From: Escherichia phage vB_EcoP_K
Sequence record: NC_047809.1
Length of the DNA: 37,775 nt
Strand: one strand, 5' to 3'
The position numbers and the translations under genes were made by a program. Below the pieces are notes generated by a model. That model was not told where the DNA came from and ran no database searches. It saw nothing but the letters and a program-made list of their open reading frames with translations. Each line of letters starts with the position of its first letter. Position 1 is the stretch's first letter. Shown piece by piece: positions 1,010 to 22,455 of the stretch.

Positions 1010-3408
1010 TGGAAGTACAAGGTTCATTAGGGAGGCAAATCCAAGGGATTAGCCAGCAACCACCAGCGGTACGTCTTGATGGCCAATGTACGACTATGGT
1101 GAACATGGTCCCTGATGTAGTGAATGGGACTCAATCCCGCATGGGTACAACTCACATTGCTAAGCTCTTGGATGAAGGTACAGATAATATGGCAACGCAC
1201 CATTATCGCAGGGGTGAGGGGGATGAAGAGTATTTCTTCACCTTAAAGAAGGGGCAAGTGCCAGAGATATTTGATAAGCATGGACGCAAGTGCAATGTCA
1301 CCTCTCAAGATGCACCTATGACCTACCTTTCTGAAGTTGTTAACCCTAGGGAAGATGTGCAATTCATGACTATAGCTGATGTTACTTTTATGCTTAACCG
1401 TAGGAAAGTGGTTAAAGTTAGTAATAGGAAGTCACCTAAAGTTGGAGATAAAGCCATTGTGTTTTGTGCATATGGTCAATACGGTACATCTTATTCTATC
1501 ATAATTAATGGAACTACAGCTGCTAGTTTTAAAACACCAGATGGGGGAAGTGCAGAACATGTTGAACAAATACGAACGGAACGTATCACTTCTGAATTGT
1601 ACTCCAAGTTGCAGCAATGGAGTGGTGTGAATGACTATGAAATACAAAGAGATGGTACGAGCATATTTATAAAGAGACGCGATGGTAAAAGTTTCACAGT
1701 AACAACTACCGATGGTGCAAAAGGTAAGGACTTAGTGGCTATCAAGAATAAAGTTAGCTCTACTGACCTACTCCCTTCTCGTGCGCCTGCTGGTTATAAA
1801 GTACAAGTGTGGCCTGCTGGCAGCAAACCTGAGTCTCGTTACTGGCTGCAAGCTGAGCCTAAAGAGGGAAACCTTGTGTCTTGGAAAGAAACAATAGCTG
1901 CTGATGTATTACTTGGGTTTGATAAAGGCACAATGCCTTACATTATTGAACGTACAGGTATCATCGACGGCATAGTTCAATTCAAGATAAGACAAGGTGA
2001 TTGGGAAGATCGTAAAGTAGGGGATGACTTGACTAACCCTATGCCCTCTTTTATTGATGAGGAAGTACCCCAGACAATAGGTGGAATGTTCATGGTGCAG
2101 AACCGCCTATGCTTTACAGCAGGTGAAGCGGTTATTGCTTCTCGTACATCATACTTCTTCGATTTCTTTCGTTATACGGTTATCTCTGCATTGGCAACTG
2201 ACCCATTTGATATTTTCTCAGATGCTAGTGAGGTCTACCAGCTAAAACATGCAGTGACCTTAGATGGCGCTACCGTGTTGTTCTCTGATAAGTCACAATT
2301 TATACTGCCAGGCGATAAGCCTTTAGAGAAGTCAAATGCATTGCTTAAGCCTGTTACAACATTTGAAGTGAACAATAAAGTGAAGCCAGTAGTAACGGGT
2401 GAATCAGTAATGTTTGCCACTAATGATGGTTCTTACTCTGGTGTACGAGAGTTCTATACAGACTCTTATAGTGACACTAAGAAGGCACAAGCAATCACAA
2501 GTCATGTGAATAAACTCATCGAAGGTAACATTACCAACATGGCAGCAAGCACCCATGTTAACAGGTTACTTGTCACTACCGATAAGTATCGTAACATAAT
2601 CTACTGCTACGATTGGTTATGGCAAGGAACAGACCGTGTACAATCAGCATGGCATGTATGGAAGTGGCCTATAGGTACAAAGGTGCGAGGTATGTTTTAT
2701 TCTGGTGAATTACTTTACCTGCTCCTTGAGCGAGGAGATGGCGTATATCTGGAGAAGATGGACATGGGTGATGCACTAACCTACGGTTTGAATGACCGCA
2801 TCAGAATGGATAGGCAAGCAGAGTTAGTCTTCAAGCATTTTAAAGCAGAAGATGAATGGGTGTCTGAACAGCTTCCTTGGACTCCTACTAACCCAGAGCT
2901 TTTGGATTGCATCTTAATAGACGGATGGGATTCATATATTGGTGGTTCTTTCCTATTCAAATACAACCCCGGTGATAACACCTTGTCTACAACCTTTGAT
3001 ATGCATGATAGCCACGTAAAAGCGAAGGTTATTGTTGGTCAGATTTACCCTCAAGAGTTTGAACCAACACCTGTAGTTATCAGAGATAGGCAAGACCGTG
3101 TATCCTATATTGATGTACCTGTTGTGGGGTTGGTTCACCTTAATCTTGATATGTATCCTGATTTCTCCGTGGAGGTTAAGAATGTGAAGAGTGGTAAAGT
3201 ACGCAGGGTGCTAGCGTCAAACCGCATAGGTGGCGCTCTCAACAATACAGTAGGTTATGTTGAACCGAGAGAGGGTGTCTTCAGATTCCCACTGAGAGCT
3301 AAGAGCACTGATGTTGTTTATCGTATTATTGTAGAGTCACCTCACACATTCCAGCTTCGTGATATTGAGTGGGAAGGAAGCTACAATCCAACCAAAAGGA
3401 GGGTCTAA
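1009..3408 (+). CDS. Tail tubular protein B (T7 gp12-like), 799 aa
   Basis: Start ATG overlaps gp11 stop (TAATG) with GGGAGGA upstream; N-terminus MEVQGSLGRQIQGISQQP resembles T7 gp12 N-terminus (..GGISQQP..); size and synteny. Confidence 0.85.
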   Translation: MEVQGSLGRQIQGISQQPPAVRLDGQCTTMVNMVPDVVNGTQSRMGTTHIAKLLDEGTDNMATHHYRRGEGDEEYFFTLKKGQVPEIFDKHGRKCNVTSQDAPMTYLSEVVNPREDVQFMTIADVTFMLNRRKVVKVSNRKSPKVGDKAIVFCAYGQYGTSYSIIINGTTAASFKTPDGGSAEHVEQIRTERITSELYSKLQQWSGVNDYEIQRDGTSIFIKRRDGKSFTVTTTDGAKGKDLVAIKNKVSSTDLLPSRAPAGYKVQVWPAGSKPESRYWLQAEPKEGNLVSWKETIAADVLLGFDKGTMPYIIERTGIIDGIVQFKIRQGDWEDRKVGDDLTNPMPSFIDEEVPQTIGGMFMVQNRLCFTAGEAVIASRTSYFFDFFRYTVISALATDPFDIFSDASEVYQLKHAVTLDGATVLFSDKSQFILPGDKPLEKSNALLKPVTTFEVNNKVKPVVTGESVMFATNDGSYSGVREFYTDSYSDTKKAQAITSHVNKLIEGNITNMAASTHVNRLLVTTDKYRNIIYCYDWLWQGTDRVQSAWHVWKWPIGTKVRGMFYSGELLYLLLERGDGVYLEKMDMGDALTYGLNDRIRMDRQAELVFKHFKAEDEWVSEQLPWTPTNPELLDCILIDGWDSYIGGSFLFKYNPGDNTLSTTFDMHDSHVKAKVIVGQIYPQEFEPTPVVIRDRQDRVSYIDVPVVGLVHLNLDMYPDFSVEVKNVKSGKVRRVLASNRIGGALNNTVGYVEPREGVFRFPLRAKSTDVVYRIIVESPHTFQLRDIEWEGSYNPTKRRV

Positions 3409-4133
3409 TGGCTATAGGTTCAGCCGTTATGTCTGGTATGTCTTCTCTAGGTAGTATGTTTGCAGGTAGCGGTGCAGCAGCCGCTGCTGGAGGTACTGCC
3501 GCAGCAGGTGGTGGAGGTTTACTAGGTTCCGTGGGAGGTTTCCTAAGTGGTTCCACTGGTGGCTTCTCCAATGCAGGCTTGCTTAGTGCAGGTATGCAAG
3601 GACTAGGGCTTATAGGTAATCTTTTTGGTGGAAGGGATGAAGCCAAAGCTATGAAGAAGGCTCAGGAGGAGCAATGGCGGCAGCAGTTAATTGCTACGCA
3701 GGAGGCATACAAAACAGTAGCAGATGCAGAACGCTCTGCTGCTAAACAGTACCATGCAGACGCAATAAGCAATCAGGCTTCACTACTACAGCAGCGAGCA
3801 CAGGTTGCATTACTTGCAGGTGCAACTGGTACTGGTGGTAACTCTGTGTCTTCTATGCTGAATGATTTGGCAGCAGAGGGAGGGAGAAACCAGAGTACAA
3901 TTATTGATAACTATGAGAATCAGAAGATTAATTTCACCAACCAGCTTAAGTCCATTCAACGCGGTGGACAGATGCAGATGCGTGAGTTTAAGAAGCCTTC
4001 TGCCGTAAGTACCTTGGTTCAAGGTATTCCAAGTCTTGCATCTGCCTATGTAATGGGTAGCAAGTCTGGTATGGCTTTAGGTAAAGCTTTAACTGATTCT
4101 CGTACATATTCATCTGGAACAAGAGGTATTTAA
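3408..4133 (+). CDS. Internal virion protein, glycine-rich N-terminus (gp13/gp14-position)
   Basis: ATG overlapping preceding stop, AAGGAGGG upstream; Gly/Ala-rich hydrophobic N-terminal third; synteny between gp12 and the large internal virion proteins. Confidence 0.5.
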   Translation: MAIGSAVMSGMSSLGSMFAGSGAAAAAGGTAAAGGGGLLGSVGGFLSGSTGGFSNAGLLSAGMQGLGLIGNLFGGRDEAKAMKKAQEEQWRQQLIATQEAYKTVADAERSAAKQYHADAISNQASLLQQRAQVALLAGATGTGGNSVSSMLNDLAAEGGRNQSTIIDNYENQKINFTNQLKSIQRGGQMQMREFKKPSAVSTLVQGIPSLASAYVMGSKSGMALGKALTDSRTYSSGTRGI

Positions 4134-7081
4134 TGGCAATTGAGCGACAAGCAGTACAAGGTCTGCCACAAGTGCAGGCCACTTCTCCTAATGTCATGAC
4201 CTTTGCACCTCAGCAAGTTGGAGGTGTGGAGGCTGGCGTAGCTTCTACCTCCGGTAGTCGATTTATCGAAGACCTTATTCGAGCAGCCAGCAGTGTAGCT
4301 GATGTTACCACTGGTATCCTTAATCAGAAGATTGAGGAAGATAAGGTTGTTCAAATGGAACGGGCATATAATGGATTAATGCCCTCTGAGGATGCAACTC
4401 GTGGTGGCGCTCGTGCTAACATGCTTGTCAAAGCTCAACTGCTGGCTAATGATGAAGCAGCACGAATGAAAGACATGGCTACTCGTTTCCAAGGAACGGA
4501 TGACGAGTGGACACAACTCATGGTCGATTCTCGTAATGAGATGCAGAATAAGCTGTTCCAGCAATACCCAGAGTTGCAAGGTGACAAAGATACTATGCGT
4601 ATGGTCACTAATGTCTTCCAAGAACAGCAGCCTCAGATTTGGGCTACACGAACCAAGCATAAACTTGACCGTGAACAAGCAGACCGTGAGGATACCTTTG
4701 ACGGGCGAGTGGCTTCTACTTGGGATTCTAATATTGACCCTGAGGCCTCTGGCTATGCTTTACAGGAACGAATCCGCGAAGGTCTGACTCAAGGATTACT
4801 ACCTGAACAGATGTACAAGAAGTTAGTCCAGCGGGCAATTTCACTTGCACAAGGTGGGGATGTTAGCATGGCTGAAGCCCTGAAGTATGTGAAGGACGAT
4901 AAGGGCGTTTCTGTTTATGCTAAGAATCCACAGCTTATCACAGCCATCACTAGTGGTAATGCAGTTTGGGCTAGGAATAATGTAGCTGATGTAACTCGTA
5001 TGTCTTTCGAAGTTAAAGAATCATACCTTGCAGGCGATTTAACTGATGAAGAATTATTGGAACGAGCACAGCACATTAATAATCTGACAGGTAACTCTGT
5101 CTTCTCTAATCCAGAGCTAGAGGCACTGATGCGCCAACGGGCTAAGCAGAATGCAGAGCTAGGTGCAATGCAGGATATGCGACGTGAGCTTTACTCCGAC
5201 CGCCTGACTGGCTTCCAAGGTAAGACTGATAAAGAGAAGAAGGCTTACATTGATGTTATCAAACAGGATAGCCAACTTTATGCAGACCAGCAAATCAAAC
5301 AACGTGGCTTGGACCCTTACAGTCAAGAGGCTGAAGCTATTCGTGGTGCAGTGGAAGTGCAGCGCCTGCAATTCATGAACTCCAAAGGCTTAGTGGATGA
5401 TACCTTTGAGTCTCGTATCAAAGCCATGGAATCTATGCTATCTCCTGAGCACTTTGCCAAGGGCGAACCACAGGAGTTGATGACTATTCGTCAGTTGTGG
5501 GAACAGTTGCCAGAAGAGAGCCGAGGTGTCTTTGGTGACACGGTGAATGGCTACATGGATAACTACAACACTGCACTACAAATGGGAGAGACACCTTTGC
5601 AGGCTGCAAGGTTTGCGCGTGAAGCACAGCAGAAATTCTCTCGTACTGAGAAGGAAAACAAGAAGTTCAACTCAGCTATTGGAGATGCACTGGATGAGGT
5701 ATCTGGTGCTGGCTGGTTTGATGGTAAAACCGAAGTGTCAGACTTAGGTAAAGCTATTGCGGAAGAAGAGTTACGAGCTAAGGCCAATATGCTGTGGTCT
5801 AGCGGTATGCGTAACATGGATTCTATCAAGAAGGCTTTAATTACTTGGGGCAATAAACGCTACACTCAATCAGAGGATGCAAAGACTTCAGGTGGCTATT
5901 TCATTAAAGGTGATTACACTTCTGCATCTGATATGCTTATGTCAGTTGGGAAAGGTGTAAACCCTACCGATGTCCCTCTGGCGCTTGGTAGGTATGTAGA
6001 AACACAGATGCCAGAATTGAAGAAGGAGCTTCAAGAGTGGGAAACTAAGGATGATGTGTACATTGATTACAATGAACAGAAAGGAACTTTTGTGATTCGT
6101 GCTGGTGCAGCAGGTCGCCCTCTTTCTGGAGTAATCCCTGTAACTTCTTTGGATACCACTTCACTACTGGATTCTGCCTATCAGAAGAAAGTAGAAGAAC
6201 GAGACAAAGGCGAGTATGTTCATCCCTATCGTACAGGTATCGGTGCACAAGAACCAATGCCAGCTAAGCCAACTGCCAAAGATATTGGTAAATTTGGACT
6301 AGCTAACTTCCTCATGTCTTCTGCTTTTGCTTCTGGTGAGAATCTGCCTTCTAACTTCGAGATTAACTATCGAGGTAATATGCAACAATTCTATGACAAG
6401 CTAGCTATGGATGAGAATAAAGATAAAGTTGGCTTTAATAAGGCAACTGGAACCTTTACTCCATATAAAGACGCTCACGGTGAGTCTATCGGTTACGGTC
6501 ATTTCTTAACGGAAGAAGAGAAGCGAAACGGGTATATTAAGATTGGCGATGAACTAGTTCCCTATCGAGGGTCTATGTCTCAGCTTACAGAGAGTAAGGC
6601 TCGCGCTCTTATGGAGCAAGATGCTAAGAAGCATGTGCCTCCTACTCGTGACTGGAAGATTCCGTTTGACCAGATGCATCCTGCACAGCAACGTGGCTTG
6701 ATGGATTTAACCTACAATTTAGGTAAAGGTGGAATCCAGAACTCACCGCGTGCTCTTGCTGCATTCAAAGCTGGTAAACTTACGGAAGGCTTTATCGAAA
6801 TGCTGGGTACTGCATCTAGTGAAGGTAAACGTGTTTCTGGCTTACTGAAGCGACGTGCTGAGGCTTACAATATGGCATCTGCTGGTGGTGTGCCTAAGAT
6901 TACCGAAGTGGAGACTCGTGAAGATGGCTCCATGTGGGTTAGATTTGGTGGCCCTATGCCAGCAGGTTCTGTCTCGGCATGGACTCATAAACTTATTGGC
7001 GCGGATGGTTGGTATCAGGTTTATGATGCTGCACCTACCAAGTTAGCTAAAGATTCTAAGGTAGGTAAAGTTAAATTGTAG
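4133..7081 (+). CDS. Internal virion (ejection) protein with C-terminal lysozyme-like muralytic domain, 982 aa
   Basis: Residues ~778-900 (nt ~6464-6830) carry YKDAHGESIGYGH...LMDLTYNLGKGG...ALAAFKAG resembling T4/P22-type lysozyme motifs (YKDTEGYYTIGIGH; ..IFNIGKSAFAGS..); size and position typical of podovirus core proteins. Confidence 0.7.
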   Translation: MAIERQAVQGLPQVQATSPNVMTFAPQQVGGVEAGVASTSGSRFIEDLIRAASSVADVTTGILNQKIEEDKVVQMERAYNGLMPSEDATRGGARANMLVKAQLLANDEAARMKDMATRFQGTDDEWTQLMVDSRNEMQNKLFQQYPELQGDKDTMRMVTNVFQEQQPQIWATRTKHKLDREQADREDTFDGRVASTWDSNIDPEASGYALQERIREGLTQGLLPEQMYKKLVQRAISLAQGGDVSMAEALKYVKDDKGVSVYAKNPQLITAITSGNAVWARNNVADVTRMSFEVKESYLAGDLTDEELLERAQHINNLTGNSVFSNPELEALMRQRAKQNAELGAMQDMRRELYSDRLTGFQGKTDKEKKAYIDVIKQDSQLYADQQIKQRGLDPYSQEAEAIRGAVEVQRLQFMNSKGLVDDTFESRIKAMESMLSPEHFAKGEPQELMTIRQLWEQLPEESRGVFGDTVNGYMDNYNTALQMGETPLQAARFAREAQQKFSRTEKENKKFNSAIGDALDEVSGAGWFDGKTEVSDLGKAIAEEELRAKANMLWSSGMRNMDSIKKALITWGNKRYTQSEDAKTSGGYFIKGDYTSASDMLMSVGKGVNPTDVPLALGRYVETQMPELKKELQEWETKDDVYIDYNEQKGTFVIRAGAAGRPLSGVIPVTSLDTTSLLDSAYQKKVEERDKGEYVHPYRTGIGAQEPMPAKPTAKDIGKFGLANFLMSSAFASGENLPSNFEINYRGNMQQFYDKLAMDENKDKVGFNKATGTFTPYKDAHGESIGYGHFLTEEEKRNGYIKIGDELVPYRGSMSQLTESKARALMEQDAKKHVPPTRDWKIPFDQMHPAQQRGLMDLTYNLGKGGIQNSPRALAAFKAGKLTEGFIEMLGTASSEGKRVSGLLKRRAEAYNMASAGGVPKITEVETREDGSMWVRFGGPMPAGSVSAWTHKLIGADGWYQVYDAAPTKLAKDSKVGKVKL

Positions 7082-10100: not shown

Positions 10101-10454
10101 TTGGAAGAGAAGTTATCGCCTAAAGGGTTGGCCTTTGGTGCAATGGGTATGATGAGTACAACTGCTGTATTTAGTCTAGGTGGAGATTTCTTGGGTGGCC
10201 TAGGTGTTCTACCTTCTGAGTTAGTACAATCCCGTTATGAGGCTGGCTTTCAGACTAAGGGTTTGATAGACCAAATACCACTAGTAGGTGTTGGTCAAGA
10301 TGCATATCGTTTAGCAGATTCTATAACTAAATATGCAGAGGGTGATACAGAAGGTGTAGATGTGGCACGTAGGGCTTTACGCTTAGTGCCTCTAACTAAT
10401 GTAATAGGAATCCAGAACGCATTGCGTTATGGCTTAGATGAACTGGAGGATTGA
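7146..10454 (+). CDS. Large internal virion/core protein (T7 gp16-position), 1102 aa
   Basis: GGAGG 5 nt upstream of ATG; long mostly alpha-helical, charged protein directly downstream of the lysozyme-domain core protein; synteny with T7-like ejection proteins. Confidence 0.6.
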   Translation: MEQDIKTNWAGYVQSTPEPFSIEAAPVSAPTIRQRNELQEQVLEAKADADILGAVGAAFQNEWLAFGGKRWYDRATADFTPQPDFEIQPEQREALRFKYGTDMMQTIIEGVRSEDELNFRIQNADEDLERNKRIAQAGWVGSVATIGAAVLDPVGWVASIPTGGAAKVGLVGRAVRGAIAAGVSNAAIESVLVQGDMTRDLDDIMVALGSGMAMGGVIGAVARGRATKLSEQGDDRAASIVRSADAGDRYVRAVADDSIGAMRVKGEEVLTEGAFDISSKGEDLLKTLQREGNAIDMTPRRWAGTMSALGTVVHSSQDASVRGLGARLFESPQGLGAQKASASLMQNTNLNRLKSADMNRFNDGFDLWLKENNINPVAGHTNSHYVQQYNEKVWEAVRIGMDESTPKSIRMAAEGQQAMYREALALRKSSGEAGFEKVKADDKYMPDIFDSMKARRQFSMHDKEDIIELFSRAYQNGSRKVPKEVADEIARAQVNRVVDATLTGRMSFEKAMSGQTKAEYEAIMRKAGFSDEEIEKMVEALDNKETRDNISNRAKMSLGLDVTQEYNGIRMRDFMNTNVEELTDNYMKEAAGGAALARQGFSTYQAALNAIDLVERNARNAAKDTKAHAQFEAESAKIRQSEPDYKKAQEKIEELKKRLKLKEKDEAAGLAIDEEIRQMREGLRLIMGKSIDADPQALSTKMLRRGRDITGVLRLGQMGFAQLGELANFMGEFGIAATTIALGKQFRFTSKALRSGDGFFRDKNLAEVERMVGYIGEDNWLTTKGARPDEFGDVTTVRGMMAHFDQSMNSIRRAQTNLSLFRMAQGSLERMTNRQIALSFIDHLEGKKIIPQKKLEELGLTQEFMTNLQKHYDANSKGSGLLGFDTMPYAMGETLANAIRRKSGLIIQRNFIGDEGIWMNKALGKTFAQLKSFSLVSGEKQFGRGIRHDKIGLAKKTAYGFALGSIVYAAKAYVNSIGREDQDEYLEEKLSPKGLAFGAMGMMSTTAVFSLGGDFLGGLGVLPSELVQSRYEAGFQTKGLIDQIPLVGVGQDAYRLADSITKYAEGDTEGVDVARRALRLVPLTNVIGIQNALRYGLDELED

Positions 10455-11416
10455 TGAGTTATACTTTCACAGAACATATAGCCAACGGTACGCAAGTAAC
10501 CTATCCCTTTAGCTTTGCTGGCAGGGATAAAGGCTATCTTCGTGCCTCAGATGTGATAGTGGAATCTCTTCAAGGTAACACTTGGATTGAGATTACATCT
10601 GGCTGGCAATTAACTGGTACGCATCAAATCACTTTTGATGTAGCACCCGTTGCAGGTTTGAAGTTCCGTATTCGAAGGGAAGTACAAAAAGAATATCCAT
10701 ACGCTGAGTTTGACCGTGGTGTTACCTTGGATATGAAGTCTTTAAATGGTTCTTTCATTCATATACTGGAGATTACACAGGAGTTACTTGATGGGTTTTA
10801 TCCAGAAGGGTACTTCATTAAGCAGAATGTAAGCTGGGGCGGCAATAAGATTACTGACCTAGCTGATGGTGAGAATCCAAAAGATGCAGTAAATAAATCA
10901 CAGCTAGATGCTATCGACAAGAAGCATACTGATTGGAACTCTGCACAAGATATAGAGATTGCTGGTATTAAGAGAGGAATGGTGTCTGGTGTATCTCATC
11001 GCACTATTCCTTGGTATATGGTCGCCTCCGGTGGAGAGCAAATCATTCGACCACCTTACTCATTTGATGATGCTATGGTGTTTATAAACGGTGTATTCCA
11101 GCATGAGCTAGCAGGTGCAGTATCAGTGGGGTATGATGTTATAACCCTGTCCGAGCCATTACAGGCTGGAGATGAAGTTTATGTGCTTATCGGTAGTCGC
11201 TTAACCCCACCTACAAGTGCGGATACTATCCTCTTTACACAAGCAGTGATTGAAGGTACACAATCTATCGACATTGTAACGGCTTTCCAACGTCTTGATG
11301 TATATTTGGATGGACTGTATCAACCTAATAATACTTATGAAATCGTAGGCTCTACTATCACTTTCAGTGAGCCATTGCCTGAGTGTGTCGTAAGTATGAA
11401 GTTACAACTAGTGTAA
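10454..11416 (+). CDS. Tail-fibre adaptor protein with T7 gp17 N-terminal-like domain, 320 aa
   Basis: N-terminus MSYTFTEHIANGTQVTYPFSFAGRDKGYLRASDV resembles the tail-attachment N-terminal domain of T7 tail fibre; no long fibre shaft; same arrangement as the adaptor of K1E/K1-5/SP6-type phages whose tailspikes are encoded at the right end. Confidence 0.7.
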   Translation: MSYTFTEHIANGTQVTYPFSFAGRDKGYLRASDVIVESLQGNTWIEITSGWQLTGTHQITFDVAPVAGLKFRIRREVQKEYPYAEFDRGVTLDMKSLNGSFIHILEITQELLDGFYPEGYFIKQNVSWGGNKITDLADGENPKDAVNKSQLDAIDKKHTDWNSAQDIEIAGIKRGMVSGVSHRTIPWYMVASGGEQIIRPPYSFDDAMVFINGVFQHELAGAVSVGYDVITLSEPLQAGDEVYVLIGSRLTPPTSADTILFTQAVIEGTQSIDIVTAFQRLDVYLDGLYQPNNTYEIVGSTITFSEPLPECVVSMKLQLV

Positions 11417-15164: not shown

Positions 15165-15378
15165 GGTGCTAGAGGTGGTAGCAGGTCTTATTGGCCTGCT
15201 GCTTGCCGCTAAGAAGAAGAAGGAAGAGAAGGAGGCACAAAGTGAGGCGAATCATGCTAGCGACAATCCTGCTGATTGGTTCGCTGATCACTTCAGGGTG
15301 TCAGACGGCGTTACCAGAGAATCCAAAGGTGAAGCCTCTGAAGCCGACGCTTACGGCAGTCTACGAGGTGGACGATAA
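15157..15378 (+). CDS. Putative i-spanin-like protein (Rz-position), unusually short (67-73 aa); start codon uncertain (GTG)
   Basis: N-terminal hydrophobic segment VLEVVAGLIGLLLAA followed by charged region; contains the start of the o-spanin ORF in another frame. Confidence 0.3.
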   Translation: MNKVLEVVAGLIGLLLAAKKKKEEKEAQSEANHASDNPADWFADHFRVSDGVTRESKGEASEADAYGSLRGGR

Positions 15379-15451
15379 AGTCTGCTTCAGTAAGCCTGAC
15401 GCTACAAAATTAGGTATGTACATTCTCTCGCTAGAACGCGGGTATAATTAA
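15254..15451 (+). CDS. o-spanin (Rz1-like outer-membrane lipoprotein), 65 aa
   Basis: GAGG 6 nt upstream; signal peptide MLATILLIGSLITSGC with lipobox-like ITSG|C; short proline-rich mature part (LPENPKVKPLKPT); starts inside and extends beyond the i-spanin candidate (overlapped architecture). Confidence 0.5.
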   Translation: MLATILLIGSLITSGCQTALPENPKVKPLKPTLTAVYEVDDKVCFSKPDATKLGMYILSLERGYN

Positions 15452-15480
15452 TACATAGTTTATGTATCAGTGTCTTACGA

Positions 15481-15503
15481 TTTACTGGACACTATAGAAG
15501 AGA
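15481..15503 (+). promoter_or_regulatory. SP6-class phage RNAP promoter (tailspike operon)
   Basis: ATTTACTGGACACTATAGAAGAG; predicted +1 G at 15498. Confidence 0.75.
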
Positions 15504-15581
15504 TAAGATAGTGCCGTTCTTTTGAGCGGCCTATTACTAGCCAATCTTCATAGGGAGGGTTGGGAAGTAATAGGAGAGTAT

Positions 15582-15917
15582 ATGGCTAAGTTAACTAAAC
15601 CCAAGACAACTGGCTTACTACATAGAGATACTGTACTAGCTACATTATTGGATAATTTACTATCTAAAAGGCGTGTTACATTTGAAGGTGTAGTTCCAAG
15701 TGAAGATACTAAAATTGAGATAGAAGTACCTGCAACAGGAGATTTAGATTCTTCGTGGGCATCACTTGTATCATTAAGTACACCTACACTTTGTACAGCT
15801 TGGATTACTAAAGTGTCAGATACTAGATTAGAAGTACATGTATTCCATACAGCACAAGTTGAAATAGACATAGATGTAGATGTTTACATTCTAGGTAAAC
15901 ACATTGTCAGTGCGTAA
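15582..15917 (+). CDS. 111-aa ORF upstream of endosialidase; probable remnant/adaptor-binding N-terminal module of a second tailspike
   Basis: AGGAG RBS; from recollection, phage K1E carries a 111-aa ORF at this position similar to the N-terminus of the K1-5 K5-lyase tailspike; not verifiable here. Confidence 0.5.
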   Translation: MAKLTKPKTTGLLHRDTVLATLLDNLLSKRRVTFEGVVPSEDTKIEIEVPATGDLDSSWASLVSLSTPTLCTAWITKVSDTRLEVHVFHTAQVEIDIDVDVYILGKHIVSA

Positions 15918-15984
15918 GCACTGCTTTTCGCGCAACTTTTCTTAAAGGTTATCATGATGGTAGCCTTTCAGAAAAGGAGGTTAC

Positions 15985-18420
15985 ATGATTCAAAGACTAG
16001 GTTCTTCATTAGTTAAATTCAAGAGTAAAATAGCAGGTGCAATCTGGCGTAACTTGGATGACAAGCTCACCGAGGTTGTATCGCTTAAAGATTTTGGAGC
16101 CAAAGGTGATGGTAAGACAAACGACCAAGATGCAGTAAATGCAGCGATGGCTTCAGGTAAGAGAATTGACGGTGCTGGTGCTACTTACAAAGTATCATCT
16201 TTACCTGATATGGAGCGATTCTATAACACCCGCTTCGTATGGGAACGTTTAGCAGGTCAACCTCTTTACTATGTGAGTAAAGGTTTTATCAATGGTGAAC
16301 TCTATAAAATCACGGATAACCCTTATTACAATGCTTGGCCTCAAGACAAAGCGTTTGTATATGAGAACGTGATATATGCACCTTACATGGGTAGCGACCG
16401 TCATGGTGTTAGTCGTCTGCATGTATCATGGGTTAAGTCTGGTGACGATGGTCAAACATGGTCTACTCCAGAGTGGTTAACTGATCTGCATCCAGATTAC
16501 CCTACAGTGAACTATCATTGTATGAGTATGGGTGTATGTCGCAACCGTCTGTTTGCCATGATTGAAACACGTACTTTAGCCAAGAACGCACTAACCAATT
16601 GTGCATTGTGGGATCGCCCTATGTCTCGTAGTCTGCATCTTACTGGTGGTATCACTAAGGCTGCAAATCAGAGATATGCAACAATCCATGTACCTGATCA
16701 CGGACTCTTCGTTGGTGATTTTGTTAACTTCTCTAACTCTGCGGTAACAGGTGTATCTGGTGATATGAAGGTTGCAACAGTAATAGATAAGGACAACTTC
16801 ACGGTTCTTACACCTAACCAGCAGACTTCAGATTTGAATAACGCTGGAAAGAGTTGGCACATGGGTACTTCTTTCCATAAATCTCCTTGGCGTAAGACAG
16901 ATCTTGGTCTAATCCCTCGTGTCACAGAGGTGCATAGCTTTGCTACTATTGATAACAATGGCTTTGTTATGGGCTATCATCAAGGTGATGTAGCTCCACG
17001 AGAAGTTGGGCTTTTCTACTTCCCTGATGCTTTCAATAGCCCATCTAATTATGTTCGTCGTCAGATACCATCTGAGTATGAACCAGATGCGGCAGAGCCA
17101 TGCATCAAGTACTATGACGGTGTATTGTACCTTATCACTCGTGGTACTTGTGGCGATCGACTAGGAAGCTCTCTGCATCGTAGTAGAGATATAGGTCAAA
17201 CTTGGGAGTCACTAAGATTTCCACATAATGTTCATCATACTACCTTACCTTTTGCTAAAGTAGGAGATGACCTTATTATGTTTGGTTCAGAACGTGCAGA
17301 AAATGAATGGGAAGCAGGTGCACCAGATGATCGTTACAAGGCATCTTATCCTCGTACCTTCTATGCACGATTGAATGTAAACAAGTGGAATGCAGATGAC
17401 ATTGAATGGGTTAACATCACAGACCAAATCTATCAGGGTGACATTGTGAACTCTAGTGTAGGTGTAGGTTCGGTAGTAGTTAAAGACAGCTACATTTACT
17501 ATATCTTTGGTGGAGAAAACCATTTCAACCCAATGACTTATGGTGACAACAAAGATAAAGACCCATTTAAAGGTCATGGACACCCCACTGATATATACTG
17601 CTATAAGATGCAGATTGCAAATGACAATCGTGTATCTCGTAAGTTTACATATGGTGCAACTCCGGGTCAGGCTATACCTACCTTCATGGGTACTGATGGT
17701 ATTCGTACTATTCCTGCTCCACTTCACTTATCAGGAGAGGTAGTTGCCGCAGATATGACTGTCGAACACCTTACCCTGAAGGCAAGTACAAGTGCTAATA
17801 TTCGCTCAGAGATGCTGATGGAAGGTGAATATGGGTTCATTGGTAAGACTATACCAACGGATAACCCAACTGCCCAACGTGTCATCATCTCTGGTGGAGG
17901 GGGTACAGCAGCAGATACCGGTGCGCAAATTACCTTACATGGAGCAGGTTCTAGTACTTCTAGACGCGCAGTATATAATGCCAATGAGCACTTGTTCCAA
18001 AGCGGGGCTATCATGCCATACAATGATAACGTGTATCCTGCTGGCGGCCCTCGTAATAGATTCACTACTATCCATCTTACAAGTGACCCTATTATTACGT
18101 CTGATGCCACTCATAAGTATGGATCACAAGGTATTGATGAGGGTGTACTAAAGGCATGGGGCAAGGTTGCCTTCAAGCAGTACAAGTTGATTGGAGAGAT
18201 GTCTAGTGGTGTGCATCACACTCACTTTGGTGTATTGGCACAAGACATTGTAGCTGCTTTTGCATCCGAAGGGTTAGATGCAATCGACTTCGGCATTGTC
18301 TCCTTCGAAGAAGGTCAGTTTGGTGTTAGATATAGTGAAATCTTAATCTTGGAGGCTGCTTATACTCGTTATCGTTTAGACAAGTTAGAGGAGATGTATG
18401 CCACTAATAAAACCAGTTAA
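15985..18420 (+). CDS. Endosialidase (endo-N-acetylneuraminidase) tailspike with C-terminal intramolecular chaperone domain, 811 aa
   Basis: AAGGAGG RBS; sialidase Asp-boxes SGDDGQTWS and SRDIGQTWES; C-terminal ..GVHHTHFGVLAQDIV..FGVRYSEILILEAAYTRYRLDKLEE.. typical of the autocleaved chaperone domain of phage endosialidases; 811 aa is the size I recall for the K1E enzyme. Confidence 0.9.
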   Translation: MIQRLGSSLVKFKSKIAGAIWRNLDDKLTEVVSLKDFGAKGDGKTNDQDAVNAAMASGKRIDGAGATYKVSSLPDMERFYNTRFVWERLAGQPLYYVSKGFINGELYKITDNPYYNAWPQDKAFVYENVIYAPYMGSDRHGVSRLHVSWVKSGDDGQTWSTPEWLTDLHPDYPTVNYHCMSMGVCRNRLFAMIETRTLAKNALTNCALWDRPMSRSLHLTGGITKAANQRYATIHVPDHGLFVGDFVNFSNSAVTGVSGDMKVATVIDKDNFTVLTPNQQTSDLNNAGKSWHMGTSFHKSPWRKTDLGLIPRVTEVHSFATIDNNGFVMGYHQGDVAPREVGLFYFPDAFNSPSNYVRRQIPSEYEPDAAEPCIKYYDGVLYLITRGTCGDRLGSSLHRSRDIGQTWESLRFPHNVHHTTLPFAKVGDDLIMFGSERAENEWEAGAPDDRYKASYPRTFYARLNVNKWNADDIEWVNITDQIYQGDIVNSSVGVGSVVVKDSYIYYIFGGENHFNPMTYGDNKDKDPFKGHGHPTDIYCYKMQIANDNRVSRKFTYGATPGQAIPTFMGTDGIRTIPAPLHLSGEVVAADMTVEHLTLKASTSANIRSEMLMEGEYGFIGKTIPTDNPTAQRVIISGGGGTAADTGAQITLHGAGSSTSRRAVYNANEHLFQSGAIMPYNDNVYPAGGPRNRFTTIHLTSDPIITSDATHKYGSQGIDEGVLKAWGKVAFKQYKLIGEMSSGVHHTHFGVLAQDIVAAFASEGLDAIDFGIVSFEEGQFGVRYSEILILEAAYTRYRLDKLEEMYATNKTS

Positions 18421-18553
18421 GCAAGCTGCTGTACTCCAGAACACAGAAGAGCTTATTCAATCAGGACGTGACCCTAAGCAGGCATATGCCATTGCCAAGG
18501 ATGTTCAACGTAGAGTATTGAGTAAGACCTCTGCATCGTCTGCGAAGCAGTAA
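18398..18553 (+). CDS. Possible small ORF (51 aa) overlapping the 3' end of the endosialidase gene
   Basis: ATG with GAGGAG upstream; MPLIKPVKQAAVLQNTEELIQSGRDPKQAYAIAKDVQRRVLSKTSASSAKQ; no homology assessable. Confidence 0.25.
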   Translation: MPLIKPVKQAAVLQNTEELIQSGRDPKQAYAIAKDVQRRVLSKTSASSAKQ

Positions 18554-18613
18554 CACTTAGTCTGCACAAGGGCTGGCTTAGGTTGGCCCTTAGTGCAACC
18601 CAAAGGAGGTTTG

Positions 18614-18769
18614 ATGATTTGGATTCATACTTATGGAGTCGGCCCATTCAAACGTAAGGTACTCAGGAAGATACATGACACTGAAGAGTCTGCACTGGCT
18701 AGCCAGAAGGTTCTTGGTGGAACTGTACAGGCTTACCTGAAGCAACCCAATGGATTCGACTTAGTGTAA
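18614..18769 (+). CDS. Possible small ORF (51 aa)
   Basis: AAAGGAGG RBS 5 nt upstream of ATG; MIWIHTYGVGPFKRKVLRKIHDTEESALASQKVLGGTVQAYLKQPNGFDLV. Confidence 0.35.
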   Translation: MIWIHTYGVGPFKRKVLRKIHDTEESALASQKVLGGTVQAYLKQPNGFDLV

Positions 18770-18829
18770 TCAAATGAGGTAACATGAAAGACCTACTGTT
18801 AGCCCTCTTATGCACAGCATGTATCTATG

Positions 18830-18887
18830 GCCCACACCCTCATGCCCTGTCAAACGCTCAGGAATGGCCCTAAAACGGCCTGTGTAA
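18830..18887. repeat. 58-bp direct repeat, copy 1
   Basis: GCCCACACCCTCATGCCCTGTCAAACGCTCAGGAATGGCCCTAAAACGGCCTGTGTAA; identical copy at 19266-19323. Confidence 0.9.
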
Positions 18888-19025
18888 CAATAGATACAGA
18901 GCTAGGATAGGCTAGATTGGCTAGGTTTAGGGTGTTCCTCCTACTGCATCTTATCACTATTACCTACTCTCAGCGGTCTACCGACCGCGACCTAATTGCA
19001 TCTTATAGCTTTAGCTATGCAATCA

Positions 19026-19160
19026 CTAAGGTCTGGCACTAAGACTAACTAAGGTACACTACTAAGTTGATACTAAGCTAAGCACTAAGGCTTTAACTAA
19101 GGCAACCCACTAAGGCTAACCTAAGCCATCCATCAAGGAATAACCTAAGGTACACGTGAG
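19026..19160. repeat. Array of about 11 degenerate heptamers (A/C)CTAAG(G), genome-terminus-like
   Basis: CACTAAGG, AACTAAGG, TACTAAG.. recur at short irregular spacing; analogous to the CCTAAAG-type repeats of T7 genome ends; four more copies at 19325-19420. Confidence 0.7.
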
Positions 19161-19183
19161 CGAGTGAACGGAGCGCAAGCGGA

Positions 19184-19239
19184 GTGAGGAGCAGTGAGTG
19201 AGGAGCAGTGAGTGAGGAGCAGTGAGTGAGGAGCAGTGA
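19184..19239. repeat. Tandem repeat, 4 x 14 bp (GTGAGGAGCAGTGA) plus partial copies
   Basis: Exact tandem copies visible in GGAGTGAGGAGCAGTGAGTGAGGAGCAGTGAGTGAGGAGCAGTGAGTGAGGAGCAGTGAGTGAAGCG. Confidence 0.9.
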
Positions 19240-19265
19240 GTGAAGCGTAGCGAAACGAACAGATA

Positions 19266-19323
19266 GCCCACACCCTCATGCCCTGTCAAACGCTCAGGAA
19301 TGGCCCTAAAACGGCCTGTGTAA
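19266..19323. repeat. 58-bp direct repeat, copy 2
   Basis: Identical to 18830-18887; copies are 436 bp apart and bracket the heptamer and tandem-repeat region. Confidence 0.9.
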
Positions 19324-19583
19324 GCCCTAAGCGGTTGCACTAAGGCAATCACCTTGTCCAATACTAAGGCGCGCCCTAGCGCTTCCTAGGTGTTCTCCTT
19401 GTGCAGCCACTAAGAGCAGACCTCGGCAAGCCCTAGGCCACCCGTCGAGCTTCCTGCGGCAGCAGGTTGAAGACGGACCAGCCCAGCCCAATTCCCAAGC
19501 CAACCGCAGCGCGTTTAAATAGTCACGGGCAAGAGTGCTACATAGTGCAACGTAAAGTATTAGGCTCAATATGGGTCACGTGT

Positions 19584-19706
19584 ATGATGCCTATTGGCTA
19601 TACTGATACAGAGGCTATCTTCTGCACCGAAAGGGATGCAAAGAAGTTTATCTCTAAGCGTAGAAAAGCTGACTCTTACCAACCCAGAACTATTAAGGTG
19701 AACTAA
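19584..19706 (+). CDS. Short ORF reading into the primase start (open from 19467; start ambiguous), possible 5'-truncated gene remnant
   Basis: Frame open for 79 codons ending TAATG overlap with primase ATG; first in-frame ATG pair at 19584 lacks a clear RBS. Confidence 0.25.
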   Translation: MMPIGYTDTEAIFCTERDAKKFISKRRKADSYQPRTIKVN

Positions 19707-21771: not shown

Positions 21772-22455
21772 ATGTATAAATTAGTATTGAATGCAGGTGA
21801 TTATGTTCGTAACATCAATGAAGCCTCACGTCGTTATCGTTGCCGTGGTGTAGTGGATCGTATAAGTGAGAACATGTATCATGTAGAATATGAGGATGGT
21901 ATTAAGGCTTCTTACCACAAGAAAACAGCACATAAATATCTTGAAAAGATTGTAGAGATAAACAATCAATGTAAGTGCATACATGATGAGGTTTGCGATA
22001 AATGTGCTCGCCAGATGCTTAAGAATTTCCTAGCTCCTCTTTATTATGGTGCTGGTCCTCAAACACTAGCAGAGTACATGGCAGAAAAGAAAACCACACT
22101 CAAGAAAGAGCGTCGCAATGTAATCACTGGTAAGACTCAAAGTGAAATGATTAAGCAATGTGGCACTGCATTAGGTGTTACACAGTTCAATACTCGTGCA
22201 TTGGGTAAATCCACAGGGCAAGCTATGGTGAAAATTGGTGAAGCTATGATGCACCCAAATGTGCCTGTGCGAATCTTGGATGTTGACCATGCAATCACAG
22301 AGCATGGCACACCACGGCGTGTAGCTAATAATCATTTCGCCGACACTATAGAAGGTATTATTCGTAAGCAAGGGTTGAAGGGTCTTCACATCTTAAATGG
22401 TGAAGAATTACTGTACCTACCTATCGTTACTGAAGAAACCTACGTGAATATCTAA
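21772..22455 (+). CDS. Hypothetical protein, 227 aa
   Basis: GGAG 7 nt upstream of ATG; coding-like composition; contains Cys/His cluster CKCIHDEVCDKCARQ; no recognisable family. Confidence 0.5.
   Translation: MYKLVLNAGDYVRNINEASRRYRCRGVVDRISENMYHVEYEDGIKASYHKKTAHKYLEKIVEINNQCKCIHDEVCDKCARQMLKNFLAPLYYGAGPQTLAEYMAEKKTTLKKERRNVITGKTQSEMIKQCGTALGVTQFNTRALGKSTGQAMVKIGEAMMHPNVPVRILDVDHAITEHGTPRRVANNHFADTIEGIIRKQGLKGLHILNGEELLYLPIVTEETYVNI
22334..22356 (+). promoter_or_regulatory. SP6-class phage RNAP promoter-like site (within gene 21772-22455)
   Basis: ATTTCGCCGACACTATAGAAGGT; conserved core GACACTATAGAAG, three mismatches upstream. Confidence 0.5.

Follow-up and report, generated by a model that had tools for sequence, protein, structure and literature searches.

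The K1E-type endosialidase tailspike module is already known and ordinary, the papers on it by Clarke, Scholl, Stummeyer and Leiman reportedly dating from 1995 to 2007; it represents a textbook case of podophage host range being changed by the swapping of depolymerase spikes on a common adaptor. The K1 endosialidase itself is a known therapeutic enzyme. In phage K1E (NC_007637; X78310, with a '12kDa ORF' and gp90), the two genes of the module are annotated as gp46 and gp47, the latter (endoNE) encoding a protein of 811 amino acids, whilst gp46 has been described as 'small and probably truncated' (PMC5380687, PMC6966330). The dual-spike module of phages K1-5 and AAPEc6 instead carries a K5 lyase of 632 aa at position 46. 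A gp37-type protein serves as the adaptor, as given in PMC6872550 and PMC6966330, which cite Leiman 2007, and two peptides have been assigned docking roles, the heptapeptide MAKLTKP on the adaptor and the undecapeptide MIQRLGSSLVK on its second site (PMC6872550).

Structures exist for two comparable systems, namely the adaptor (7Y22) and tail fibre (7Y5S) of Klebsiella phage Kp7, and the endosialidase endoNF of phage K1F (1V0E, 3GVL, 3GW6). The latter was reportedly described by Stummeyer in 2006 as carrying its own T7 gp17-like N-terminal domain, with no adaptor needed.

Layout of the module and its flanks

The window analysed here was the whole 37,775-nucleotide stretch of DNA from Escherichia phage vB_EcoP_K (NC_047809.1). 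The module and its adaptor are very probably the means by which a K1E-like Vectrevirus (SP6-like podophage) recognizes its receptor; their features are listed below together with those of the flanks.

10454 to 11416, plus strand: tail adaptor of the K1E gp37 type, 320 aa (Pfam, PDB, PHROG)
15484 to 15500, plus strand: phage-RNA-polymerase promoter core, ACTGGACACTATAGAAG, upstream of the two-gene module (exact match)
15582 to 15917, plus strand: gp46-type protein of 111 aa, a putative docking peptide followed by an 87-residue orphan body, predicted beta-rich (K1E gp46, PHROG 15083)
15582 to 15653, plus strand: codons 1 to 24 of the above, common to full-length second tailspikes, the first seven being MAKLTKP (alignments, tblastx)
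15908 to 15984, plus strand: conserved 77-nt linker between the spike genes, comprising a hairpin with the gp46 stop codon in its loop and the endosialidase ribosome-binding site
15985 to 18420, plus strand: endosialidase tailspike, 811 aa, of the K1E gp47 / endoNE type (Pfam, PDB, identities)
15985 to 16017, plus strand: N-terminal undecapeptide MIQRLGSSLVK, putatively docking on the adaptor's second site (sequence; role from PMC6872550)
16438 to 16461, plus strand: Asp-box 1, SGDDGQTW, aa 152-159 (regex match)
17182 to 17205, plus strand: Asp-box 2, SRDIGQTW, aa 400-407 (regex match)
18100 to 18420, plus strand: C-terminal intramolecular chaperone domain, aa 706-811 (Pfam and PDB boundaries)
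19264 to 19513, minus strand: partial direct terminal repeat (K1E repeat positions about 40-288), 250 nt, inverted (K1E ends mapped)

Both open reading frames of the module were found where a preliminary description of this DNA had placed them (15582-15917 and 15985-18420), and correspond to gp46 and gp47 of K1E, with which the locus shares gene order, promoter, ribosome-binding sites, linker and adaptor type. The DNA of the module was 99.8% identical to that of the Smith-Huggins phage vB_EcoP_B (phage B) and 91.5% identical to that of K1E; E. coli O18:K1:H7 is the host on which its closest relatives are grown (PMC5582158). The K1-5 and AAPEc6 modules have in common with it the adaptor system, promoter, leader, 77-nt linker, first-gene heptapeptide and an endosialidase of 89.8% identity, but where they encode the K5 lyase the present locus encodes the 111-aa protein.

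The perfect K1E-type promoter core, ACTGGACACTATAGAAG, occurs nine times in the window, relative to 0.13 matches expected by chance. The copy at 15484-15500 coincides with the promoter that X78310 assigns to its '12kDa ORF', its sequence is invariant in K1E, AAPEc6 and Mt1B1_P10, and it would drive transcription of both genes. A scan for sigma-70 promoters and terminators revealed no enrichment over shuffled sequences, and an Rfam scan of 15300-19700 returned nothing.

The linker had matches in 105 phage records, approximately 80 of which were essentially matches to the linker only (79-99% identity), including those of K1-5, K5, SP6 and of Citrobacter, Proteus and Pectobacterium phages, whereas the gp46 body matched only 25 K1E-like records. 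The hairpin within it is only weakly stable (-10 kcal/mol, z -1.4). The linker is likely to be a recombination joint, and spikes would be swapped between it and a conserved 5' flank consisting of the promoter, leader and first codons. Modular host-range exchange, as the preliminary description had proposed, agrees with the conserved flanks around variable spikes that were evident in both the alignments and the record matches.

The endosialidase tailspike and the tail adaptor

The 811-aa reading frame is preceded by the ribosome-binding signal AAGGAGG. Pfam searches with its product identified End_N_terminal (aa 39-102), End_beta_propel (PF12217; aa 103-545, E 1e-222, over the full length of the profile), End_beta_barrel (PF12195; aa 214-296), End_tail_spike (PF12219; aa 546-705) and Peptidase_S74, the 'chaperone of endosialidase' (PF13884; aa 706-763). 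With all four endosialidase domains present the protein is, as judged from its sequence, a complete endosialidase tailspike. A six-bladed beta-propeller with an inserted beta-barrel was recognized through PF12217, PF12195 and PDB entry 1V0E, and in PDB searches endoNF (1V0E/3GVL) matched aa 38-705 with an E value of 0. A triple-beta-helix stalk was also identified, together with a chaperone containing a Ser-Lys dyad, Ser706 and Lys711, both of which were confirmed within the motif SDATHK. The PDB constructs are divided at this same point, in that crystals of mature endoNF extend up to 705 and the chaperone structures (3GW6/3GUD) begin at 706.

The Asp-box pattern S-x-D-x-G-x-T-W was matched twice. 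The residues E371, R386 and R437 are spaced by 15 and 51 positions, as in endoNF, the active site of which we take to be E581, R596 and R647 (numbering after Stummeyer 2005), and a stretch of 134 residues around them is almost identical to the endoNF chains. An endosialidase with two Asp-boxes and a C-terminal intramolecular chaperone, as previously claimed for this gene, is hence borne out by the Pfam, regex and PDB matches and by the cleavage residues. Release of the chaperone by autocleavage before Ser706, and cleavage of alpha-2,8-polysialic acid by the enzyme, are both predicted.

The amino acid identities of the protein, relative to its nearest counterparts, were close to 90% for K1E gp47 (89.9%), 97.9% for mutPK1A2 and 99.6% for phage B; the comparison with K1E, K1-5 and K1F enzymes that had been suggested as a check came out in favour of the endosialidase. 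An exact look-up showed the 811-aa sequence itself to be absent from the assembly collection. K1E gp47 has the same length and the same Ser706 boundary, yet 76 of its 82 amino acid differences lie within residues 501-800 (stalk and chaperone) and the propeller is almost identical, which places the C-terminal third of the present protein with that of PK1A and phage B.

Propeller, beta-barrel, stalk, chaperone and E/R/R active site are all shared with endoNF, but instead of a T7 gp17-like N-terminal domain the protein begins with an 11-residue putative docking peptide, MIQRLGSSLVK, which is unchanged in the K1E, AAPEc6, ULINTec and UTI89 phages. No Phage_T7_tail domain was found by Pfam in the 811-aa protein; as the preliminary description had stated, this domain (PF03906) is carried instead by the 320-aa protein encoded at 10454-11416 (27.6 bits over residues 3-153, the cut-off being 25.2). 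The latter is of the size of the SP6/K1E-type adaptors (approximately 320 aa), lacks a receptor-binding domain of its own, belongs to PHROG 2710 (E 2e-148) and is 99.7% identical to its phage B counterpart. It matched the 'tail adaptor protein' of Kp7 (7Y22) over residues 1-319 (E 1e-83), making the two full-length homologues, and its residues 190-311 also resemble domains that serve for docking in branched tail-fibre systems (9k4a, 9d83, 7rfo). Since the first approximately 47 residues of the Kp7 fibre (7Y5S) are likewise common to the endosialidase (E 3e-6), the docking arrangement appears to be the same, although the depolymerase body and the host of Kp7 differ. No evidence contradicting the identity of either the endosialidase or the adaptor was found.

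From these parts a working apparatus can be proposed. The adaptor would bind the tail through its T7 gp17-like domain and offer two spike-docking sites, predicted to lie in the region after that domain; the endosialidase would dock on one of them via its undecapeptide, its trimer having folded with the help of the C-terminal chaperone, which would then be cut off before Ser706. The virion enzyme would degrade the alpha-2,8-polysialic acid of the K1 capsule, allowing the phage to reach the outer membrane. The MAKLTKP peptide, which in K1-5-like phages would hold a depolymerase, be it the K5 lyase or a different one, at the other site, is borne here by the 111-aa protein, where a small orphan body, probably beta-rich, replaces the depolymerase; by its position gp46 would be virion-associated and would most likely occupy or cap the empty site, with no enzymatic activity.

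The 111-residue protein at position 46

The reading frame at 15582-15917 runs from ATG to TAA, with the ribosome-binding site GGAGAG upstream, and encodes a protein 97% identical to K1E gp46. Like that protein it comprises 111 aa, starts with MAKLTKP and is encoded with the spanin gene on one side and the position-47 spike on the other; it belongs to PHROG 15083 (function unknown), with an E value of 2e-73 over residues 1-111 of 111. Codons 1-24 aligned with the second spikes of AAPEc6 (K5-lyase type), Mt1B1_P10, VEc3, NTNC80A, phD2B and SP6; the position-46 tailspikes of Vectrevirus and Zindervirus include the K5 lyase and the SP6 endorhamnosidase. The heptapeptide is the same as in the K5-lyase type, and its M1, T5 and P7 are invariant in eight diverse proteins.

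Beyond the shared N-terminus the protein stood alone in the searches. An exhaustive HMMER search of 1.84 billion representatives returned only its own cluster, with no match to residues 25-111 elsewhere, and a word-indexed search of 5.8 billion clusters retrieved three clusters, all of 111 aa. Pfam yielded only an ASH-domain hit that fell short of the cut-off (13.7 bits, with 27 required), and the PDB sequence search only the N-terminus of the K5 lyase (2X3H), with 18 of 45 residues identical over residues 1-45 (39%, E 0.023). A beta-helix spike would not fit into 111 aa, and no Pfam, PDB or HMMER match to a beta-helix depolymerase body was found past residue 45. AlphaFold2 models were of low confidence (pLDDT 49.8 from the single sequence, 58.4 with four orthologues), the body in the better of them being predicted as all-beta with six strands over residues 26-104. 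Foldseek searches of the model against PDB and BFVD gave no significant match except to its own orthologue; at this confidence, the structure prediction that had been suggested for this gene gave no significant match to a tailspike N-terminal domain.

The orphan body is nevertheless maintained. The gene has 111 codons in each of seven isolate orthologues, with no indels at dS values of up to 0.44, and also in three IMG/VR contigs; of the 63 columns that vary, 35 are at the third position of a codon, and each of the other two frames of the reading frame contains 10-14 stops. The dN/dS of the body, at 0.16-0.32 across the seven orthologues, indicates purifying selection, and hence the body is not eroding in the manner of a remnant. 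The earlier claim of a retained attachment module from a lost second tailspike consequently holds for residues 1-24, MAKLTKP included, but not for residues 25-111, which had no detectable relative among 1.84 billion proteins and are under selection.

The proposal that gp46 is a non-functional leftover of a deleted spike gene, its frame open from the retained start to a chance stop in the intergenic hairpin loop, is therefore rather unlikely, since the low dN/dS and third-position excess, the constant length and the stop-rich alternative frames all argue against it. It would account for a stop codon that sits within the conserved linker hairpin, for a body with neither relatives nor a Pfam domain, and for the wording of reviews in which gp46 is termed truncated and enzymatically inactive. 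It also fits the different single-base frameshifts that two laboratory-propagated PK1A-lineage records carry in this gene, one of them annotated in the deposited phage genome as causing premature termination; because of these frameshifts, gp46 may be dispensable for laboratory growth. Clarke et al. (2000) reportedly proposed a truncated K5 lyase for K1E, in which case the entire gp46 sequence would derive from the lyase gene (kflA). The shared locus, promoter and ribosome-binding site and the 45-residue match to 2X3H are in keeping with such an origin, yet the N-terminal peptide is equally common to unrelated second spikes, and so is no specific sign of a lyase. Past codon 24 no similarity in any frame was detected to the spike loci of AAPEc6 (lyase), Mt1B1_P10 (second spike) or SP6 (blastn with 7-nt words, tblastx), which led us to reject a frameshift or internal deletion of these genes as the source of the body and makes derivation from the lyase improbable.

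Purifying selection on a six-stranded all-beta body could also reflect a small receptor-binding or lectin-like domain conferring a second, non-enzymatic specificity, and the best of the weak Foldseek resemblances (7eea, 6cxb, 4ru4 and 4q56, E 0.08-0.8) involve beta-sandwich domains from tailspikes, R-pyocin fibres and H-type lectins. None of these fold matches is significant at a model pLDDT of 58, however, and with K1E-type phages described as infecting K1 strains only, and the frameshifted PK1A lines evidently propagated as phages, we regard a second specificity as quite doubtful. Our own, tentative suggestion is that gp46 is not a dead stub but a selected, portable 'site-filler' cassette, in which an orphan beta-domain is carried on the universal docking peptide and which may fill the vacant adaptor site in single-spike phages and may be combinable with spikes other than the endosialidase. 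The latter part draws on metagenomic contig L020, where the same 111-aa gene is paired with a pectate-lyase-like spike that is not an endosialidase. As a filler, gp46 might lend stability to the complex of adaptor and spike, hold the working spike in a set orientation or recognize a secondary ligand. The additions to the known module are modest, namely that the gp46 body is a selected orphan, in all probability not a truncated lyase, and that it can accompany a different spike; they are relevant only to those engineering host range through adaptors, for whom it would be useful to learn if a docking site can be left unoccupied.

Terminal repeat and early region

The only DNA in the window resembling the K1E terminal repeat is that at 19264-19513, which is inverted relative to all of the 30 listed relatives compared. 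Comparison with phage B revealed that the window lacks an early-gene stretch of approximately 6.9 kb in which the RNA polymerase gene lies, as a result of which the truncated inverted repeat abuts the primase region. Junctions are located at 18835/6, 18887/8 and 19513/4. Two rearrangement junctions were searched in IMG/VR and had no match there, and the missing RNA polymerase region bears on the trustworthiness of the deposited phage K genome. The placement of the module next to the terminal repeats, noted in the preliminary description, is accurate for the family, but in the present record the repeat is partial and inverted; in K1E, 307 nt separate the end of the endosialidase gene from the terminal repeat on the right.

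The endosialidase module and its adaptor

Two open reading frames (ORFs), located as in the preliminary description, run in the same direction, each preceded by a Shine-Dalgarno sequence:

15484-15500, upstream of the module, exact match to the core of the phage-polymerase promoter, ACTGGACACTATAGAAG
15582-15917, 111-aa ORF (gp46)
15985-18420, 811-aa ORF (gp47, the endosialidase tailspike)

Nine copies of the promoter core are present in the window, where 0.13 would be expected. Megablast searches with 15400-18600 matched 135 phage records, the best being Escherichia phage vB_EcoP_B (phage B; 99.8% identity), and K1E matched at 91.5%. The K1E counterparts of the two genes are annotated as gp46 ('hypothetical') and gp47 ('tail spike'), and the same promoter, ribosome-binding sites, '12kDa ORF' and endosialidase were already annotated in X78310 (1994).

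Pfam searches with the 811-aa protein revealed a complete endosialidase architecture, and two Asp-boxes are present.

Domains and motifs of the 811-aa protein (residues)
End_N_terminal (Pfam): 39-102
End_beta_propel (Pfam, E 1e-222): 103-545
End_beta_barrel (Pfam): 214-296
End_tail_spike (Pfam): 546-705
Peptidase_S74 (Pfam): 706-763
Asp-boxes (two): 152-159 and 400-407

Crystal chains of the coliphage K1F endosialidase (endoNF) in the PDB align with residues 38-705 (E 0), and chaperone-domain structures from residue 706 onwards, with the cleavage motif SDATHK (Ser706 and Lys711) at this Pfam/PDB domain boundary. The region of E371, R386 and R437 is near-identical to endoNF, and these residues match the spacing of its catalytic Glu/Arg/Arg. 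The earlier reading of this protein as an endosialidase with two Asp-boxes and a C-terminal chaperone is borne out by these results, as is its lack of a T7-like N-terminal domain: no T7 tail-fibre N-domain was detected in it by Pfam, and it begins with MIQRLGSSLVK, an undecapeptide to which a role in docking on the adaptor has been ascribed (PMC6872550). The tail-binding domain had been assigned to a separate adaptor at 10454-11416. This 320-aa protein indeed contains Phage_T7_tail above the Pfam threshold, and its full length aligns with the solved 'tail adaptor protein' 7Y22 (E 1e-83). The source of 7Y5S, the fibre partner of 7Y22, is given as Klebsiella phage Kp7.

The 811-aa protein is 99.6% identical to that of phage B, 97.9% to that of mutPK1A2 and 89.9% to that of K1E. 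As 76 of the 82 amino acid differences from K1E gp47 cluster in residues 501-800 (window 17485-18384), with the propeller near-identical, sequence comparison identifies the endosialidase as an intragenic mosaic, of PK1A/phage B type in its stalk and chaperone part.

The published picture (Leiman 2007, as relayed in PMC6872550, PMC6966330 and PMC5380687) is the best-supported account of how the module operates. The adaptor would bridge the tail to two spike sites, with the endosialidase on one of these degrading the K1 capsule, and gp46 would provide a peptide for the other without a depolymerase; we infer that gp46 fills this second site. Clarke et al. (2000) had reportedly already proposed that K1E arose by acquiring the endosialidase and losing the lyase. 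Each element of the module belongs to a described family and the finding is already known; the refinements added here are minor, namely the orphan, selected body of gp46, the exact homology boundaries and an alternative spike pairing.

Homology boundaries and constraint of gp46

The 111-aa protein shares 97% identity with K1E gp46 and falls within PHROG 15083, a family of unknown function. Comparison with proteins encoded in the same slot, comprising the K5-lyase type (AAPEc6, VEc3, K1-5), the 479-aa Mt1B1_P10 spike and the NTNC80A, phD2B and SP6 spikes, demonstrated that the N-terminus alone is held in common (MAKLTKPxTxGxLH....L...LD, ~24 residues), with a weak likeness to K5 lyase continuing to residue 45 (18/45 identical, E 0.023, PDB). 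In the DNA of K1E, AAPEc6 and Mt1B1_P10, the stretch from the promoter through the leader to the first codons is near-invariant, after which similarity collapses, resuming at 15908, 10 bases ahead of the gp46 stop codon, with a 77-nt linker that is kept in K1-5, K5 and SP6 and also in Proteus and Pectobacterium phages. A small hairpin in this linker holds the stop codon in its loop.

DNA of the gp46 body (residues 25-111) found matches in 25 K1E-like records only. These residues had zero relatives among 5.8 billion protein clusters and, with HMMER, among 1.84 billion representatives, and neither blastn nor tblastx found similarity to the lyase and other spike genes. The proposal that gp46 is the retained N-terminal attachment module of a lost second tailspike is therefore valid for the docking peptide only, and does not extend to residues 25-111. 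A truncated lyase, as an account of gp46, was rejected 'in any detectable sense', given that these residues lack lyase similarity.

All seven isolate orthologues of gp46 have 111 codons without indels, and so do the ORFs of three IMG/VR contigs, although one of these contigs duplicates the ACG-C91 genome. The dN/dS of the orphan body was 0.16-0.32 (dS up to 0.44), compared with 0.07-0.23 for the endosialidase, and third codon positions made up 35 of the 63 variable columns in the alignment. The low dN/dS, third-position excess and fixed length indicate, at the level of codon patterns, that gp46 is a translated, constrained protein. Frameshifts in the PK1A lineage nonetheless count against its essentiality: mutPK1A2 (L011 2701-2841) carries a 1-base deletion, annotated as premature termination, and the older K1A record EF507428 (L017 297-640) a 1-base insertion at another position. 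Both indels lie within A-runs, and thus represent either sequencing errors in homopolymers or a loss that laboratory lines tolerate.

Structure prediction for gp46 was of low confidence (pLDDT 49.8 and 58.4); it points to a six-stranded beta domain, together with a short helix and a peptide at the N-terminus that is disordered. Foldseek returned no significant match for the model; the weak matches were beta-sandwich domains of tailspikes, pyocin fibres and lectins.

In the metagenomic contig L020 (IMGVR_UViG_3300013837_000006, 3001-5587), the gene next to the same 111-aa gene encodes, in place of an endosialidase, a 727-aa pectate-lyase-like spike, which has an S74 chaperone and a docking peptide beginning MLQRLG; the position-47 (second spike gene) spike of KMB14 and LF31P3 is 97-98% identical to this spike. 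This pairing, from a single metagenomic contig, would make gp46 a separate cassette, independent of K1 specificity.

A 107-aa antisense ORF (15548-15871, minus strand), wholly within the gp46 gene and also open in L020, is probably a by-product of gp46 codon composition. In SP6 (AY288927.2; L016 ~2250-2275), the conserved linker and ribosome-binding site are followed by ATG ATA CAA AGA TTA GGT TCT TCC TTA GTG, encoding MIQRLGSSLV, whilst the second spike is annotated from a downstream ATG at 2275; judged from this reading frame, the annotated start probably lies too far downstream, leaving out the docking peptide.

The rearranged region downstream of the spike

The module had been described as lying next to the terminus repeats. 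This is true of K1E, where 44657 is the last position of the endosialidase gene and 44964 the first of the 288-bp right terminal repeat, but in the window the repeat is partial and inverted and ~6.9 kb is absent. Collinearity with phage B extends beyond the small ORFs that follow the spike and ends at 18835, in the region of two inverted segments:

18827-18887, inverted, additional copy of the terminal repeat's final 61 nt
18888-19513, inverted block, left-end sequence (334 nt) and repeat positions ~40-288

Past 19513, the window jumps to DNA just upstream of the primase/helicase gene. The segment absent relative to phage B, K1E and the other relatives listed (NC_047806 15856-22781) covers the initial ~40 nt of the repeat, early genes, an ocr-like gene and the gene for RNA polymerase; no RNA-polymerase-sized ORF was found anywhere in the window. 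The inverted block has the opposite orientation in all relatives listed, the junctions (18835/6, 18887/8 and 19513/4) show microhomology of just 1-7 nt, and neither of the two searched for in IMG/VR occurs there.

The rearrangement either arose as an artefact of assembly or reflects a genome that is defective or helper-dependent. In a genome of the T7 supergroup, nine polymerase-specific promoters without a polymerase make autonomous growth difficult to account for. The genome of Smith-Huggins phage K was reported as 38,025 bp with repeats of 250-289 bp, and as lacking RNA polymerase, 1.1, Ocr and other genes (Baig et al. 2017, PMC5582158).

A small gp48-like ORF (18398-18553, PHROG 2423) overlaps the end of the endosialidase gene, and directly 3' of it lies a stable hairpin (18563-18597; -22.9 kcal/mol, z -2.1), possibly a late transcription terminator without a U-run. 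Within the inverted left-end block, ~4-5 copies of a 14-nt unit, GAGTGAGGAGCAGT, stand in tandem (19182-19251), with apparently fewer at the same place in the phage B record. That record also contains two poly(T)20 tracts in a duplicated ~70-nt segment (L006 reverse complement 21973-22080), directly adjoining the end point of the window's inverted block, and this hard-to-sequence region may have caused an assembly break.
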